DNA of 56,409 nt from a virus. Its lineage: Duplodnaviria > Heunggongvirae > Uroviricota > Caudoviricetes. The DNA lies in IMG/VR virus record IMGVR_UViG_2617270940_000006, one strand, 5' to 3'. Both the position numbers and the translations under genes were made by a program. The notes under the pieces are model-generated. The model ran no database searches, was not told the origin of the DNA, and worked only from the letters and a program-made list of their open reading frames with translations. Positions 47,181-54,072 of the stretch are shown here, piece by piece (the stretch's first letter is position 1; each line of letters starts with the position of its first letter).

Positions 47181-47392
47181 TGGCGGTTACACTGACAGGT
47201 CTGGAAATCGAAAAAACAAGCGGCTACTGGCGTGCCAAAGGGTTCAAGCAGTCCGGCGTACTGGAACGACTGGAACGTGAAGATGGGTATATTGTCCACC
47301 AGCGACGTGAATGGCACATGTACGATCCGGAAACAGGTAAGCTCGCAACGAAGGCCGGGACACTCTGGGGTCTGCTGAAGAAAATCCACTGA
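47177..47392 (+). CDS. Hypothetical small protein
   Basis: 71-aa ORF coupled to the preceding gene. Confidence 0.35.
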   Translation: MMAVTLTGLEIEKTSGYWRAKGFKQSGVLERLEREDGYIVHQRREWHMYDPETGKLATKAGTLWGLLKKIH

Positions 47393-47398
47393 TAACAC

Positions 47399-47998
47399 TA
47401 TCCACTGCGGTGAGTAGCCAGTTCACCGCGTGTGAATCCGGCTCATAACCACTGTAGCGAGTAGAACACCCTTCAGGTATGCCCCCCAACCACTGTAGTG
47501 AGCAAACCCTCTGCCACGATATCAACTATCCACTGTAGTGAGTAAATTGGTGATTATCGGGGTCGCTATACACTGTAGTGAGTAAACAGGCGTTCACTGA
47601 CTACAAACAACCACTATAGAGAGTGATGGAATGCCCCCTCCAGCGGATATCCACTATGGAGAGTAAATCTTCGCTGTTTTAAACGGATATCCACTCACTA
47701 CAGTGGATAGAGGTCAAGTCAGCCAATTCTGCTCTTCACAGTGGATAGTCAACAATGAGGAGAGCGACGATAACCGCTGTAGAGAGTAGACTTAACAGAG
47801 ATACCCAGTGACCGCTAACCTCTCAGCCCTTGTTTTATCTATGTTTGCAACCACTAACATTTACTTCGCGATTTGTGCGCACTGCCTACAGTGGTTATTC
47901 TTCGGTTTCTTTTACTCACTACAGTGGATATTGCATTTCCGATAAACAAAAAGGCTCACTACAGTGGATAGTGAGCCTTTTTACTCTCTACAGTGGTT
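47399..47998. repeat. Iteron array downstream of repA (incA-like copy-control locus)
   Basis: About 14 copies of a 19-bp-class repeat with core CCACTGTAGTGAGTA, in both orientations. Confidence 0.8.
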
Positions 47999-48001
47999 GG
48001 G

Positions 48002-49057
48002 CTATTTGCGAGCCTTTGCCTTGCGCAGCTCTTCGAGAATCGCCAGTTCTTCCTTGCTCAACATGACCATTTCCCCGTCTTTTTCTTCAGGGGCAACATC
48101 GATAATGTCCTCCGGATCATCACCTGGCAAGATATCTTCTGGCTCTTCAGGCGTGGCCATAGATGGCGGCAGTGCCGAACGTAACTTCGGCCGTCTATAG
48201 TGGATGACGAAGTAGACCGAGCTGCCGCGTTTCACTTCAGTGTAATCGAGATAGCCGATCTCTCGCAGCTGCTCCATCGCCTTCCTGACTGTCGCATTCT
48301 GGGTAATGGTGCGGCTGGTTAAGTTAAGTCTGGCGCGTAAGCGAGCCAATGAGATTGGCGCCGGGTCTGGTGGCAAACTTTCAATGAAGGTGTAGAGCGC
48401 CTGCGCGGATTCTTTTCTGGAGAGTTCGTTGATGGCCCGAAGTTGCAAAAGCACCTTTTTGTCGAACTGGTAAAGTTCGAAAATCTTAGGATCGGCCTTC
48501 AGTTCGACCGTGTCATTCTTGGTACTGTACTTTGCCGTCTGCACAAGGTGCGTAACGTAATACTCTTCAGAGCCTTTGCTGCGGAATGAGATGGTGTTTG
48601 TGGCGATACGACTTAGAGAGCTGTCCAGGCGCTTACGTAACTTCGCGGACGATCTGGCTGTTGGTATGCCACAAAGTCTGACGAACTCGACGAACGGCAA
48701 CGTGACGGTGTCACCAACAACCTTGTGCTTGGCGAACGCGTGGATGATGCCCACCCATGTTTTGAAATCGTTATCCATATCAAGACGAAGACCAGCAATC
48801 CTTATATCCTCGTACCCTTCGGCTTTGGCCAGAGACAGCTGTTTGAGTTCAGCGGAGGCGTCCATAGAGACCATTTGCCCCTTTCTACCCCTGGATGTCG
48901 ATTTCAGCGTCGGAACGAAGAGACCAAGACGCATCAGAGCAACAGGCTGAACTGTGTTGTTGGTGTTAGGAACTAACGTAACAACTTCGCCGGTCTTTTT
49001 GTCTGTTTCGGAAAATGCTTCGCTTATCGCAATGTTTTTATTGTCGTTTACGCTCAT
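48002..49057 (-). CDS. repA: RepA replication initiator (P1 RepA-like)
   Basis: [19 protein letters not shown] and later blocks match recalled P1 RepA; flanked by iterons on both sides; about 65-aa acidic C-terminal extension. Confidence 0.9.
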
Positions 49058-49100
49058 TCCAAATGTCTCTTTTTATTCGACGGCTTGGGTGCCTTTACTG

Positions 49101-49339
49101 ATTACAGTGGATAGTAGCACCCATCACAGTGGTTATCCTACCGCCTACAGCGGTTTTTCTACTCTCCATAGTGGTTGATTTACTCTCTATAGTGGTTGTT
49201 CTTCTCACTATAGTGGATATCGATAACCTCTAAAGCCATGTGGCACAACGGTTTGCAGGGGCCGGGGATCTCTTTGGGTCTTTGTGGTTCTCTTTGGTTC
49301 TAACAGGGATCTGAATTACTGGATCGGGCCTGTGTATAA
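49101..49339. promoter_or_regulatory. Origin-like module: 6 iterons, GATC cluster, DnaA-box-like site
   Basis: Iterons (core CTACAGTGGTTAT) at about 21-bp spacing over 49101-49225; GATC at 49267, 49308 and 49322; TTATACACA on the complementary strand at 49331-49339. Confidence 0.75.
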
Positions 49340-49500
49340 AAATCAGATAATTACAAAATCAGGCATCACTCCCCTTCTGGGGATAATGTGTGATCGAAAT
49401 AAACACGCCGCAACGCAAAATTTACAATATTTCCAAGAATATCAGTCATCTGCCGCAGAAAAACAGGCTCGGAGTTATCCAGTTAAAACATTGTCTCCTA

Positions 49501-49714
49501 CTCACTACAGTGGATACCGACTACTCTCCAGAGAGGTTGTTTTGCTCTTCATAGCGGTTATTATGCTCTCTACAGTGGTTATTTTGCTCCCTATAGTGGA
49601 TAGTAACCCCTTCTCAAGCCAGTAACCGCAAGCGCTGGAGACGATCGGGGATCTCTTTTGATCTTCTGTAGGATCTCTCTGGGGATCTAAATATTGGATC
49701 GGGCCTGTGAATAA
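49501..49714. repeat. Second iteron / GATC / DnaA-box module
   Basis: About 5 iterons over 49501-49608; six GATC sites over 49643-49700; TTATTCACA on the complementary strand at 49706-49714. Confidence 0.65.
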
Positions 49715-49799
49715 AGTGAATAAGTAAACAGGCATTTGCAAACTCCGGTGCGCCTTATCCGTTATCGTTGCCCCGGACAAAATTATTTGAACAAGAATT

Positions 49800-50444
49800 A
49801 TGGATCTTAAACGCACGCGCTGGGTTCGCCGTCTTGAAGATGGCTCCTACACCATTGAATCAAACACTAGTCTGAACAAACAGAAGTTGCTCTGCGACCT
49901 TTGCGGCATTGCTTCGAAATGCCCGATTAACGAAACCCGGCTTAAACTCCACGACGCCGGTGCGCATTTCCACCTAAACAGCTGCATACGTTACGTGCCA
50001 CTACTAGCATTTCGTAAACCGATCATCGGATTGGATGCTCCCTACTTCAACACACTGCGCTCTGGTGTCACTTGGCGAGATCGTGTCGAACCTGGCAAAC
50101 TCGTTTGTCTGGTTGAAGCTGATACCGGAAATGTCATCCGGTTCGGGAGAGTTGATAAGGTCTACTCAGGCCCAGTGGATGAAATGCTGCGGAAACACAG
50201 CCGATTTAACCATCTCTGCATGGGCGGAGAGAAGATTGAGAAGGTTGGCGAAGTAATTCGCAAATCTTACGGACACTTTCTGAATGATAACAGCCTTCTG
50301 ACAGCCATTTACATTCGCCATGTCGATCGGGAGTTCGACACGGAGTATCACAGTGCTGAAGAGTTGAATCTTGTAGACCCTCGTCCAAAAGCTGGGGTAA
50401 TAGACATCAGCAGAGCGCGTCAGAAGCCCTCAGAGACGTTTTAA
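49800..50444 (+). CDS. Hypothetical protein
   Basis: 214-aa ORF; no recognisable motif. Confidence 0.45.
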   Translation: MDLKRTRWVRRLEDGSYTIESNTSLNKQKLLCDLCGIASKCPINETRLKLHDAGAHFHLNSCIRYVPLLAFRKPIIGLDAPYFNTLRSGVTWRDRVEPGKLVCLVEADTGNVIRFGRVDKVYSGPVDEMLRKHSRFNHLCMGGEKIEKVGEVIRKSYGHFLNDNSLLTAIYIRHVDREFDTEYHSAEELNLVDPRPKAGVIDISRARQKPSETF

Positions 50445-50840
50445 AGGCAAACTCATGCTTTTTACCGGGCATAAAATATGGTGTCTTAGAAAGACACTGA
50501 GAGCTTTAGGGATTAATGCATGAGTGAATTTTATTCAAGAGCAGAAACTGTGGCCGACGGATGCGTTTGAAGACGACGCACGCAAACGCCGTAGATGTCA
50601 TCTCACAACTTCACCGTCCGTTCTCCTTTTTCATTTCTTGTCATCAGTAAATGACTGCTCTCATAAAATTGCTTGTGACGTTTAGAAATCGTTGCTGCCC
50701 TATCTGATAGGTATTTACTTACTTATTTTTTTGTCATTATCATGTGCCTTTATATTCTTTTGTATGCCGTGTTGTCTGGGTTGTACGCCTCTTATGCACG
50801 CTTAGAATTTGTATCAAAATAACCACAAAGGAAAAGACAC

Positions 50841-51926
50841 ATGACATTGCCATACGGGGTAATATCAGATCCCCATTATCATCGTTGGGATGCTTTTGCG
50901 ACAACAAACGCTGACGGGCTTAACTCTCGGCTGGAGATCCAACTGGACGCTACGAAGGAGGCGGCCAAAGCGATGAAAGCTGCTGGCTGTAAGCACATGC
51001 TGGTAGCTGGTGATACCTTCCATGTTCGCGGTGCTATATCACCTTCCGTTCTGCATTTCGTGACCGAAACTTACGAGTGGATCATCAAAGAGTTGGGTCT
51101 CAAGGTGGTAATGCTGGCTGGCAACCACGACCTCGAAACCAACGATTCCGTATACAGCGCCAATGCAGCAGCCTCTCTGCGCTCAATCGGTGTGGAAATC
51201 GTCTGCGGCAAACGTCCTCATTCCATCAAAATGGGCGACGTAACCGTCCATCTGATTAGCTGGCGTAATAACCACGCAGAACTTATCAGCGATCTCAAAA
51301 CGCTGCGTTCCGGGCTGGATGGTGACAACCATGATGTTGTTGTACATACCTCAATCAACAAAGCGATCCCCACCATGCCCGATGTCGGCATCGACGCACA
51401 GGAACTGAAAGATATCGGCTTCCGTTTATTGTTGTCCGGGCACTACCACAACCACAAAGAAGTGCTGCCTGGAGTGGTAAGTATCGGGGCGCTGACACAC
51501 CAGAATTGGGGGGATGTTGGTTCACTGGCCGGCTTCATGATCGTCAAACCGGACGGCTCATTCACTCACCACGAAACCTCGGCACCTAAATTCGTGAACC
51601 TTGAGGACGATGTAGATGACGATCAGATTCGCGGCAACTACGTGCGCTTCCGTGCCGTTGTTGAGAGCGATGAAGAAGGCATCAAACTTCAGAACGTCCT
51701 GAAAACAATGGGCGCGAAGGGTGTCGTCTGCAACTTCATTCGCAAGGCATCGATGATGGAAGGCGCTGCCAGTACTGCGGAAACCAGCAAAATTGACAGC
51801 CTGGGAGAGTCCGTTGCGGCGTACTGCAAGATCGTTCACGACACTGACGGTGGCTTCGACCTGAGCAAACTGGACATACTGTGTCAGGAGATCTTGACCG
51901 AAGCAGAGAGTGCGGAGGCTGTGTGA
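50841..51926 (+). CDS. SbcD/Mre11-like nuclease
   Basis: Calcineurin-like phosphoesterase motifs DPHYH, GDTFH, GNHD; conserved start context. Confidence 0.8.
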   Translation: MTLPYGVISDPHYHRWDAFATTNADGLNSRLEIQLDATKEAAKAMKAAGCKHMLVAGDTFHVRGAISPSVLHFVTETYEWIIKELGLKVVMLAGNHDLETNDSVYSANAAASLRSIGVEIVCGKRPHSIKMGDVTVHLISWRNNHAELISDLKTLRSGLDGDNHDVVVHTSINKAIPTMPDVGIDAQELKDIGFRLLLSGHYHNHKEVLPGVVSIGALTHQNWGDVGSLAGFMIVKPDGSFTHHETSAPKFVNLEDDVDDDQIRGNYVRFRAVVESDEEGIKLQNVLKTMGAKGVVCNFIRKASMMEGAASTAETSKIDSLGESVAAYCKIVHDTDGGFDLSKLDILCQEILTEAESAEAV

Positions 51927-52155
51927 GGCAACGTTATTATGGGAGCTTTCGAGATTTTGCCATCGTGATGAAAAAACTTCAAAAAGGCCAGACGGTTATG
52001 TTTCACAAGCCATACCCTTCAGGAGGAAATCCCGTAGCGTTTTATCTTGGAAGGCTAACCAGAAAAGGCTTATTGAATCGCAGATCCTTCCCCGCGCATA
52101 CGGAGTTCAGATTGAAAGATGGTCAAAAGTTAACACACGATATCAGAGGTGTTAT

Positions 52156-54072
52156 ATGAAGTTTTTAAAGCTCCAGGTTGAAAATTTTATGGCAATCGCC
52201 AGCGCAGAAGTCGAGTTAGACCAGCGTGGACTGGTGCTGATCCAGGGTGTGAACAGTGGCGATACGTCTGCTGCCAGCAATGGCGCCGGGAAATCCACTC
52301 TGATGAATAGCTTAATGTGGTGTCTGTATGGTGAGACTGCACATGGCGTCAAAGGCGATGACGTGCTGTCGACGGGCCATGAGAAGAACTGCCGTGTGAT
52401 GGTTACAGTTGAAGACGAAGGTAAGAAATACGCGATCATTCGCCATCGTAAACACAAAGAGTTCAAGAACCGACTAATCGTCCGTGGTGAAGACGGTGAT
52501 ATGACCAAAGGCAAGGACACGCTGACACAGACGTTCGTAGAACGTCTGATTGGGGCATCGAAAGAGGTGTTCATGGCGTCCATCTACGCCAGTCAGGAAG
52601 CGATGCCAGATCTGCCCGGTATGTCCGACAAGAGCCTCAAAACCATCGTTGAAGAAGCTGCTGGCGTCGACCGATTGACGCGAGCCTATGCCATTGCCCG
52701 CGAGCGTGCTAATGCAGCTGCCGCACGTATGGACGTTACCAAATCCAAAATGGACGCCTGTCTCACGCTTATCGAGACTGCACAGTCAGAGATTGAGGCG
52801 GCCAAAGCGTCCTCTGAAAGCTGGGAGCGCGATCGCGGCGAGCGTCTGGACAAGGCCCGAGCCGATTTGGCTGGCGCGGAGGTAACACTGTCTGAAGTCG
52901 AGATGGAAATTCGCTCGCTGCCGGAACAGATCCGTGATACGGAAAACGCGATTGCTGGCGAACGCAGCAAGCTGGCCTCCAAAGAAGAGCATGACGCCAA
53001 ACTGCTGAAGGTGCGCAGTGCTATTACTGAGATCCGCTCAAGCATCCGTACTTCAGAAGCGGCACAGAACGAGTCGATAAACCGTGCTCGCTCGTTTAAA
53101 ACCAAAGCTGAAGAGGTCAGCACAAAGATCGGGGCACCCTGCATTACGTGCGGAAAGCCCTACTGCGAAGAAGATTTATCCACGGTGAAGGAGAGCTTCA
53201 TTGAACAAGCGCGCAATGAGATCGGCCTTGCGCAGACATCAGCAGCGGCAGTGGCTCAACACAAGGCTCGTCTTGAGAAAGCGCTCGGTATCGAGTCTGC
53301 ACTGGTCGCAGCCACACCCGACGTCTCAGAAATCATCTCCACAATAGAACGCCTGACCAATGAGCTAAGTGCGCTGCGTCATCGCGAACGTGAAGTTGTG
53401 GCCGTCGAAGCGATGGTTGCGCGGGCGCGTACTGAAGTGAATCGCATCATGGCGGAAGCAAACCCATTTCTGGCCGTTATTAAGCGCCATGAAGACAACC
53501 TGGCTGCCAATAAATCTAATCATGCAGTACTTAAAAATGAGTTAAAGAGCATTCAGGAACAGGCTCTGTTGCTGGAGAAGGCCCGCCAGGTTTACTCCCC
53601 AGCAGGCGTGCGTTCACACATCCTGACCTCCGTTACGCCTTTCCTGAACATCAGGACTGCGGAGTATCTCAACACGCTGTCGGACGGCAATATCGTTGCC
53701 GAATGGTCGACAATGGAGACAACGAAGAAAGGTGAGTATCGCGACAAATTCAATATCAGCGTAATCAAAACAGGCTCCAGCAAATCCTTCCAGACTTTGT
53801 CTGGTGGTGAGAAGCGTAAGGTACGTATTGCGTGCTCTCTGGCTTTGCAGGATCTGGTTGCCAGTCGCGCCAGTAAGAATATCGAGCTATTTATCGGTGA
53901 TGAAATTGACGACGCGCTCGACACAGCCGGTCTGGAGCGTCTCATGGGGATTCTGGAAGCCAAAGCGCGTGAACGTGGCACAGTGATGATCATCTCCCAC
54001 AAAGAGATGAAATCGTGGTTCCGGGAAATTATCACTGTCGAAGTTAAAGAGGGGCGCAGCTATGTCGTTTAA
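52156..54072 (+). CDS. SbcC/Rad50-like ATPase
   Basis: Walker A (GAGKST), central coiled coil with CxxC zinc hook (CITCGKPYC), signature LSGGEKRK, Walker B (LFIGDEIDDALD). Start set at MKFLKLQ with an RBS. Confidence 0.85.
   Translation: MKFLKLQVENFMAIASAEVELDQRGLVLIQGVNSGDTSAASNGAGKSTLMNSLMWCLYGETAHGVKGDDVLSTGHEKNCRVMVTVEDEGKKYAIIRHRKHKEFKNRLIVRGEDGDMTKGKDTLTQTFVERLIGASKEVFMASIYASQEAMPDLPGMSDKSLKTIVEEAAGVDRLTRAYAIARERANAAAARMDVTKSKMDACLTLIETAQSEIEAAKASSESWERDRGERLDKARADLAGAEVTLSEVEMEIRSLPEQIRDTENAIAGERSKLASKEEHDAKLLKVRSAITEIRSSIRTSEAAQNESINRARSFKTKAEEVSTKIGAPCITCGKPYCEEDLSTVKESFIEQARNEIGLAQTSAAAVAQHKARLEKALGIESALVAATPDVSEIISTIERLTNELSALRHREREVVAVEAMVARARTEVNRIMAEANPFLAVIKRHEDNLAANKSNHAVLKNELKSIQEQALLLEKARQVYSPAGVRSHILTSVTPFLNIRTAEYLNTLSDGNIVAEWSTMETTKKGEYRDKFNISVIKTGSSKSFQTLSGGEKRKVRIACSLALQDLVASRASKNIELFIGDEIDDALDTAGLERLMGILEAKARERGTVMIISHKEMKSWFREIITVEVKEGRSYVV

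Follow-up and report, generated by a model that had tools for sequence, protein, structure and literature searches.

Why should a single initiator gene be preceded by two origin-like modules, and which of the two is the origin? The question is raised by IMG/VR virus record IMGVR_UViG_2617270940_000006 (Caudoviricetes), whose 56,409 nucleotides are referred to as the window. Its replication initiator gene, repA, has next to it an iteron array with GATC repeats and a DnaA box (the proximal module), and further upstream a second set of the same elements (the distal module). A first-pass annotation of the window had noticed both modules, likened their order to that of phage P1 oriR, and regarded the proximal one as the origin and the distal one as an additional copy-control locus or a second origin. 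Below we describe the two modules as paralogous copies of a P1-like origin, present together in a clade of related replicons, in which the distal copy is preserved and the proximal copy repeatedly loses its GATC repeats. On this comparison the distal copy may well be the principal origin and the proximal one mainly the operator of repA, a reading that we consider evenly poised between right and wrong.

Two copies of an origin module upstream of repA

The interval between repA and the next gene, a plus-strand open reading frame (ORF) at 49800-50444, is 743 bp long and contains two modules of a common design (Table 1). Moving away from repA, each consists of iterons, a G+C-rich spacer, a GATC cluster, and a DnaA box, and the modules are collinear (49100-49339 for the proximal and 49503-49723 for the distal one). 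The iteron block, the GATC cluster, and the DnaA-box-like site that had been placed near repA at 49101-49339 are all present, and so is the similarly ordered module that had been placed at 49501-49714. The ends originally given to the two modules, 49339 and 49714, are exact ends of DnaA boxes.

Table 1. Features of the replicon region, with positions in the window
Feature	Position	Strand	Description
incA-like control array downstream of repA	47399-47999		12 exact and 2 degenerate iterons, in both orientations
Hairpin with U-run	47948-47982	-	Directly after the repA stop codon; 14-nt arms, 100% complementary
repA	48002-49057	-	351-aa iteron-type initiator; Rep_3 family, P1 RepA/RepFIB group
Proximal iteron array	49100-49219	+	Six direct repeats (49103-49219), spacing 21-22 bp; between repA and everything upstream
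Proximal GATC-type repeat region	49263-49327		Six units, three of them still GATC (49267, 49308, 49322)
Proximal DnaA box	49331-49339	-	Reverse complement TTATACACA, full match to TTATNCACA
Inter-module spacer	49340-49502		A+T-rich (38% G+C), poorly conserved
Distal iteron array	49503-49602	+	Five direct repeats, spacing 21-23 bp; four exact, one degenerate
Distal GATC cluster	49642-49701		Six GATC sites (49643, 49650, 49660, 49672, 49684, 49697)
Distal tandem DnaA boxes	49706-49723	-	Reverse complements TTATTCACA (49706-49714) and TTATTCACT (49715-49723)

The two modules are genuine paralogues. Aligned over their full length, the two are identical in 79% of the columns, and beyond the iterons 92 of the 109 aligned positions (84%) are the same. 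The score of the beyond-iteron alignment is 47, compared to 2.7 +/- 2.7 (maximum 17) for 1000 shuffles preserving dinucleotide composition (z = 16), which places the similarity between the modules far above background. The proximal and distal copies are offset by 375-397 bp.

The iteron motif YAYAGYGGWTD has 23 matches in the window against 0.9 expected, a number reached by none of 100 shuffled sequences, and all 23 are confined to the replicon, between 47446 and 49602. In both modules the iteron core is TAYAGTGGWTA, and the degenerate iteron of the distal array is its second repeat (CTCCAGAGAGGTTG, 49526-49539). The G+C content of the spacer following the iterons is 53% in the proximal and 57% in the distal module. 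Units 2-4 of the proximal repeat region are decayed, reading GGGTCT at 49276 and GGTTCT at 49286 and 49296. The distal cluster has the highest GATC density anywhere in the window and is a presumptive unwinding region controlled by Dam and SeqA; base composition does not discriminate between the two GATC regions (48% versus 45% G+C). The DnaA boxes of the modules, one proximal and two distal, all lie on the repA strand. The inter-module spacer also has a weak DnaA-box-like site (TTATCCAGT, 49475-49483), and in many relatives a consensus-matching box occurs at this place, flanking the distal iterons. Two ORFs within the intergenic region (49284-49625 on the plus strand and 49505-49816 on the minus strand) have no Pfam match and overlap the iterons, and were treated as spurious. 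An Rfam search of 47200-50600 yielded nothing credible, with a single match far below the gathering score (E = 0.15).

The initiator itself is also of the P1 type. RepA matches the Pfam domain Rep3_N (E = 2.4e-11), with Rep3_C slightly short of the cut-off, and is 46% identical to P1 RepA over 76% of its length (tblastn, E = 2e-71); identity is 93% to SSU5 RepA and 55-63% to the RepA proteins of IncFIB plasmids. As judged from these alignments, it is a true homologue of P1 RepA. The P1 oriR-like order proposed in the first-pass annotation agrees with the curated oriR/incC/repA/incA annotation of the P1 record AF234172. The array downstream of repA likewise matches the position of P1 incA, although there are 14 iterons here against nine straight after repA in the P1 annotation. 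Its arrangement is unusual, with seven minus-strand iterons spaced about 40 bp apart and then a group of mixed orientation.

Distribution and age of the duplication

In the 3.2-kb replicon region, identity is 99.9% with E. coli plasmids, 90% with SSU5 and with Salmonella, Enterobacter, Citrobacter, and Kluyvera plasmids, and 81% with phage Cyrano; the intergenic region is 89.5% identical to that of Yersinia pestis pMT1. The gene neighbors, that is, small ORFs, repA, an ORF of 214 aa, and an SbcD-like metallophosphoesterase, are the same as in SSU5 and Cyrano. Because of this sequence identity and the shared local gene order, the window is, by its replicon region and adjoining genes, an SSU5-like phage-plasmid. 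The closest plasmids are typed as IncFIB by MOB-suite.

Both modules are present in the relatives. The two-module layout was observed in SSU5, Cyrano, pMT1, E. coli CP117972, a 230-kb Rahnella plasmid, Cronobacter turicensis pCTU1, and a 180-kb Pantoea agglomerans plasmid. For a broader survey, one genome per species was scanned with a RepA profile, resulting in 80 loci. About 50 of them have iterons of the type described here and a RepA 62-95% identical to the query, and nearly all of these contain two iteron arrays with a GATC cluster after each. The sources of two-module loci in the survey are Kluyvera, Buttiauxella, Yersinia, Franconibacter, Rahnella, Erwinia, Pantoea, Phytobacter, Cedecea, Xenorhabdus, and a metagenome-assembled genome of Tolumonas. 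Surveyed loci with other iteron types have one module, and one module is also found in P1, in the RepFIB replicon of pO157, in IncFIB(K), and in SSU5-family elements with a different Rep. In the RepA tree, the replicons with two modules fall into a single clade surrounded by outgroups with one module, namely P1, pO157 RepFIB, and other Pantoea and Escherichia replicons. A scheme with one origin for plasmid maintenance and the other for lytic growth is excluded, since non-phage plasmids of Rahnella, Pantoea, and Cronobacter share both modules.

The age of the duplication can be read from the 125 bp following the last iteron of each array, referred to below as the tail, and from defects shared between lineages. 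On the tail tree, proximal tails group with proximal ones and distal tails with distal ones in most lineages. The degenerate second iteron of the distal array recurs in all relatives whose sequence was inspected for it. Further, the second unit of the proximal cluster is non-GATC in every examined locus having the cluster (GGGTCT, GGTTCT, GGAACT, GGACCT, or GGCCTT). Taken together, the grouping on the tail tree and the two shared defects indicate one ancestral tandem duplication, not repeated recent ones, and a recent origin of the two copies is ruled out by the same tree and by the defects common to several lineages.

These data also bear on the simplest explanation of the second module, namely that the duplication is a recent or neutral accident without function, left by slippage or recombination or even created during assembly. 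Tandem repeats do arise easily by recombination in iteron regions. Nevertheless, we regard this explanation as highly implausible, as the same layout with the same defects occurs in independent assemblies from at least 10 genera, in both plasmids and phage genomes, and the range of RepA identities (62-95%) excludes one recent common ancestor of these assemblies. Moreover, the copies are merely 79-84% identical to each other, and both are more conserved than the spacer between them.

Single Pantoea genomes, for instance Pantoea agglomerans NBRC 102470, hold both types of replicon, the two-module one on contigs of approximately 110-160 kb and a one-module, RepFIB-like one on contigs of approximately 400-570 kb. 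They probably correspond to LPP-2 and LPP-1, respectively, whose replicons a 2025 paper (PMC12612815) characterizes no further than as RepFIB-like, regulated by iterons, and present at a copy number of one. That the two Pantoea replicons coexist may be due in part to their different iterons and origin architecture.

Asymmetry of the two copies and their possible roles

Since the duplication, the two copies have fared differently. Among approximately 40 related replicons, the distal copy is never lost or degraded. Its cluster has 5-7 GATC sites in every two-module locus, with a nearly invariant spacing of about 10, 21, 32, and 45, and after it there is usually a DnaA box that matches the consensus or, in some lineages including Rahnella, departs from it at one position; a further DnaA box is often found on the repA side of the distal iterons. 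In contrast, the number of GATC sites in the proximal cluster varies from 0 to 6 across the relatives. One unit is lost in many Pantoea replicons, two in Rahnella and Erwinia, and three in the SSU5/pMT1 group, where one unit has also been inserted. The entire proximal cluster is gone in Cronobacter, Franconibacter, Phytobacter, Scandinavium, Pseudescherichia, Entomohabitans, [Erwinia] mediterraneensis, and Tolumonas, and this complete loss maps to at least three separate branches of the RepA tree. The proximal iterons are kept in every relative, even where the adjacent GATC cluster is gone.

The same asymmetry is seen in sequence conservation. Mean between-lineage identity is 0.72 for the distal tail and 0.71 for the distal iterons, compared to 0.69 for the proximal iterons and 0.66 for the proximal tail; it is 0.60 for the sequence beyond the distal module and 0.48 for the inter-module spacer, the level of shuffled sequences being 0.58. 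When the window is compared with other genera, the distal tail is 0.69-0.79 identical, whereas the proximal tail (0.54-0.64) is near the shuffle level. In support of a special status of the distal copy, the SSU5-family elements with a different Rep have other iterons (ACCGCTGACAGCATAC) and one module, the GATC/DnaA part of which is homologous to the distal segment of the window and abuts the same 214-aa ORF. Thus, what the one-module relatives of this family keep is exactly the segment homologous to the distal GATC/DnaA part.

From these comparisons we infer that the distal module is the principal origin, and that the proximal one is mainly the repA operator and an auxiliary RepA-binding array, perhaps with weak origin activity; as stated above, we put the chances for and against this combined assignment at about equal. 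The distal module is the probable principal origin because it is complete and never degraded. The proximal module, in turn, is probably mainly an operator and pairing array because it separates the distal module from repA, has retained its iterons throughout, and can lose Dam sites and the DnaA box. The first-pass annotation, which had taken the proximal module for the origin and the distal one for an accessory, probably had the roles the wrong way round. The distal module is the more complete of the two, with tandem DnaA boxes, six GATC sites in P1-like spacing, and the terminal CGATCG, and it is the one that is never lost.

The assumption that the proximal module is the origin, as in P1, and that the distal one is an extra negative control locus acting by RepA titration and handcuffing seems improbable to us. 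The proximal module is indeed the positional equivalent of P1 oriR, and it is conceivable for any additional iteron array to titrate and pair RepA. However, a control array needs neither a GATC cluster nor a DnaA box, yet every distal copy conserves both, and it is in the proximal copy that these features erode, so that lineages without the proximal GATC cluster would be left with no complete origin. Nor is the distal copy necessary to explain copy control, because the 14-iteron incA-like array is already present downstream of repA.

The preferred assignment, with the distal module as the principal origin, can be put in the form of the following scheme. An origin module made up of five or six RepA iterons, a spacer, a cluster of Dam sites, and DnaA boxes was duplicated in tandem in an ancestor of a large clade of enterobacterial plasmids, and the two copies would then have diverged in their roles. 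At the distal copy, RepA bound to the five iterons and DnaA bound to the flanking boxes would open the adjacent GATC-rich region, where methylation and sequestration by SeqA would time initiation, as in P1 oriR. The proximal copy would serve mainly as the operator through which RepA represses its own gene, and its iterons would form an extra RepA-binding array that pairs with the origin and with the incA-like array at 47399-47999, contributing to copy control. The origin-specific parts of the proximal copy, depleted of Dam sites, may still support weak initiation.

A quite different possibility, which we consider rather unlikely without dismissing it, is that both modules are working origins under one RepA, either redundant or specific to certain conditions. 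For example, a Dam-rich, strongly sequestered distal origin might be complemented by a proximal origin poor in Dam sites, whose firing is timed differently or takes place in hosts that differ in Dam or SeqA activity. It is consistent with this possibility that both copies keep the iterons, the G+C-rich spacer, the periodic GG..CT/GATC units, and the DnaA box across approximately 25-30% RepA divergence, and that in most lineages the proximal tail is better conserved than the flanking spacer. The loss of GATC from particular units with the GG..CT skeleton kept also looks like changed constraint and not like free decay. On the other hand, several lineages have no proximal GATC cluster at all, so that proximal firing would be dispensable at least there, and the proximal tail of the SSU5 lineage has drifted to near-background similarity to that of other genera.

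Several observations speak against assigning the origin to the distal copy. The functional origin of P1 is the module adjoining repA. The proximal module of the window keeps a consensus-matching DnaA box and three GATC sites, many Pantoea replicons keep four of five proximal GATC units, and within the SSU5 family the proximal tail is 84% identical between the window and Cyrano, against 63% for the neighboring spacer. The last comparison indicates that in this family the proximal tail is under some constraint, and together with the kept box and GATC sites it means that the proximal module could still fire. The tail tree is built on approximately 125 bp, and on it the Buttiauxella/Cedecea and Rahnella copies sit close together, which could be due to gene conversion or re-duplication. 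As regards the operator, a scan with promoter consensus sequences gave five promoter-like matches, with 3.4 expected; the sole match facing repA (-35 at 49234-49229, -10 at 49212-49207) is situated at the outer margin of the proximal iterons, which remain a putative repA operator, and its assignment as the repA promoter was dropped as the match is weaker in SSU5 and Cyrano. Finally, in the searchable literature we found no experimental dissection of the cis-structure of the SSU5, pMT1, pCTU1, Rahnella, or Pantoea replicons.

If the distal module is nevertheless the main origin, a more specific suggestion can be made, which we offer tentatively and with less confidence than the assignment itself. 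The jobs that a single array does in P1 may here have been split naturally between a dedicated origin timed by Dam and SeqA and a Dam-site-depleted operator or auxiliary initiation site, selected against methylation sites at fixed positions, with RepA looping across the approximately 380 bp between them. In P1-type replicons the same iterons are origin, repA operator, and handcuffing partner, making autoregulation hard to separate from copy-number control. Nature may already have separated these roles here, because the two paralogous modules are under visibly different evolutionary constraints. If so, this clade of iteron plasmids would offer a natural means of telling autoregulation apart from origin function and handcuffing. 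The clade includes medically relevant elements, namely Y. pestis pMT1, SSU5-like phage-plasmids carrying resistance genes, and Cronobacter pCTU1. For annotation and origin prediction, the implication is that the module adjoining repA may not be the main origin of such replicons.

Several additional features of the locus concern repA and its surroundings. The hairpin that follows the repA stop codon (centroid -21.4 kcal/mol, z = -4.1) is likely the terminator of repA. An iteron at 47957-47970 is embedded in its stem and loop, and for this reason RepA binding there could interfere with, or respond to, termination of the repA transcript. An iteron-like site, GTCTATAGTGGATG, is located at 48193-48206, within the repA coding sequence. 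The 214-aa ORF on the other side of the two modules has no Pfam match; it is annotated as "ASCH RNA-binding domain" in Cyrano and as "hypothetical" elsewhere. In all SSU5-family elements examined, irrespective of the type of Rep, it adjoins the origin, a place where it is not found in non-phage plasmids. The SbcD-like metallophosphoesterase (Pfam Metallophos) and a 720-aa ORF following it (50841-54072) are the same in SSU5 and Cyrano and belong to the phage backbone, not to the replicon.

SSU5-family plasmids with a different Rep in the same backbone position were found in Klebsiella (locus L006, 2851-3160) and E. coli (locus L007, 2853-3161). Their GATC/DnaA segment and the adjacent 214-aa ORF are approximately 75% identical to those of the window. 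The combination of a different Rep and different iterons with a shared GATC/DnaA segment and 214-aa ORF suggests a replicon exchange with the breakpoint between the iterons and the GATC cluster. The Rep of these plasmids, annotated as 405 aa long, overlaps its own iterons, and hence its start codon has probably been called too far upstream.

Comparison with P1 and other replicons

In the P1 record AF234172, the annotated order is a DnaA-binding site, five Dam sites, five incC iterons containing the repA promoter PrepA, repA, and nine incA iterons; the plan here is similar, with one or two DnaA boxes, a GATC cluster, a G+C-rich spacer, iterons, repA, and a downstream iteron array. The distal module is collinear with P1 oriR, as both have tandem DnaA boxes, periodic GATC sites, a G+C-rich spacer, and five iterons. 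Its tandem boxes are placed like the pair TTATCCACA TTATCCACT of P1 oriR, and its GATC sites are spaced by 10, 22, 34, and 47, compared to 10, 21, and 44 for the Dam sites of P1, where the unit at 33 is GGTCC. The last GATC before the G+C-rich spacer is part of CGATCG in the distal module and of TGATCG in P1. The five P1 iterons are 19-21 bp long and spaced by 21 bp, and differ in sequence (GATGTGTGCTGGAGGGA against the TAYAGTGGWTA core); RepA of the window is 65 aa longer than that of P1. The main difference is that P1 has a single origin module with the repA promoter in it, whereas here there are two, approximately 380 bp apart, and the complete one is away from repA.

The P1 oriR (851-905 of the P1 locus compared with 49643-49700 of the window) has one non-GATC unit, AGGTCC, in an otherwise periodic array of Dam sites. 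Its position differs from that of the unit lost in the proximal modules described here, and for these reasons the loss of single Dam sites with the repeat skeleton kept seems to recur in origins of this type. In P1, the GATC repeats are the place where the origin opens and must be methylated, and the extra iterons of incA restrain the copy number by pairing. The P1 annotation places PrepA among the origin iterons, which makes repA subject to repression by its own product. Origin opening in P1 is initiated by DnaA and greatly facilitated by RepA (PMC5043065).

The locus shares with P1/RepFIB-type replicons a homologous initiator, iterons spaced by approximately 21 bp, outer DnaA boxes, and a downstream incA-type array. 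A GATC cluster with a period of approximately 11 bp is complete in the distal module (six sites) and partial in the proximal one (three of six units). Typical members of the group have a single origin module with the repA promoter; because two modules are present here, we classify the locus, by its sequence features, as a member of the P1/RepFIB kind of iteron replicon that is a variant and not a standard representative. The classic RepFIB replicons (P307/F/pO157 type) and IncFIB(K) have repA flanked by iteron arrays, as here, in a layout of iterons followed by five or six GATC sites and, for pO157, by a DnaA box of consensus sequence. In the loci examined, those of pO157 and IncFIB(K), one GATC/DnaA module precedes repA, and the iterons differ in sequence from those of the window. 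The replicons of SSU5, pMT1, pCTU1, Rahnella, and Pantoea have a RepA of the same clade as the window, the same iteron core, and the same two-module architecture, and differ only in the decay of the proximal GATC units: pCTU1 keeps none, Rahnella three of five, Pantoea four of five, and the window, like SSU5 and pMT1, three of six.

The abstract of Lindler et al. 1998 reportedly describes "a single 2,450-bp region" as the possible origin, including a RepA-like protein similar to those of RepFIB, RepHI1B, P1, and P7. We found no description of a duplicated origin in the SSU5, pMT1, pHCM2, pCTU1, or Pantoea replicons in the searchable literature, although it may be mentioned in the original papers on pMT1 (Lindler 1998; Hu 1998) or RepFIB (Saul 1989). 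The duplication apparently represents an undescribed architectural variant of the P1/RepFIB iteron replicon, and no new kind of system. In R6K (alpha, beta, and gamma) and F (oriV and oriS), one initiator serves several potential sites of initiation within one plasmid region. In R6K, only gamma has an iteron array, and alpha and beta depend on gamma in cis; ori1 and ori2 of F are not paralogous copies of each other. Compared with these textbook multi-origin regions, the two units described here differ in being full paralogous copies of a complete origin.

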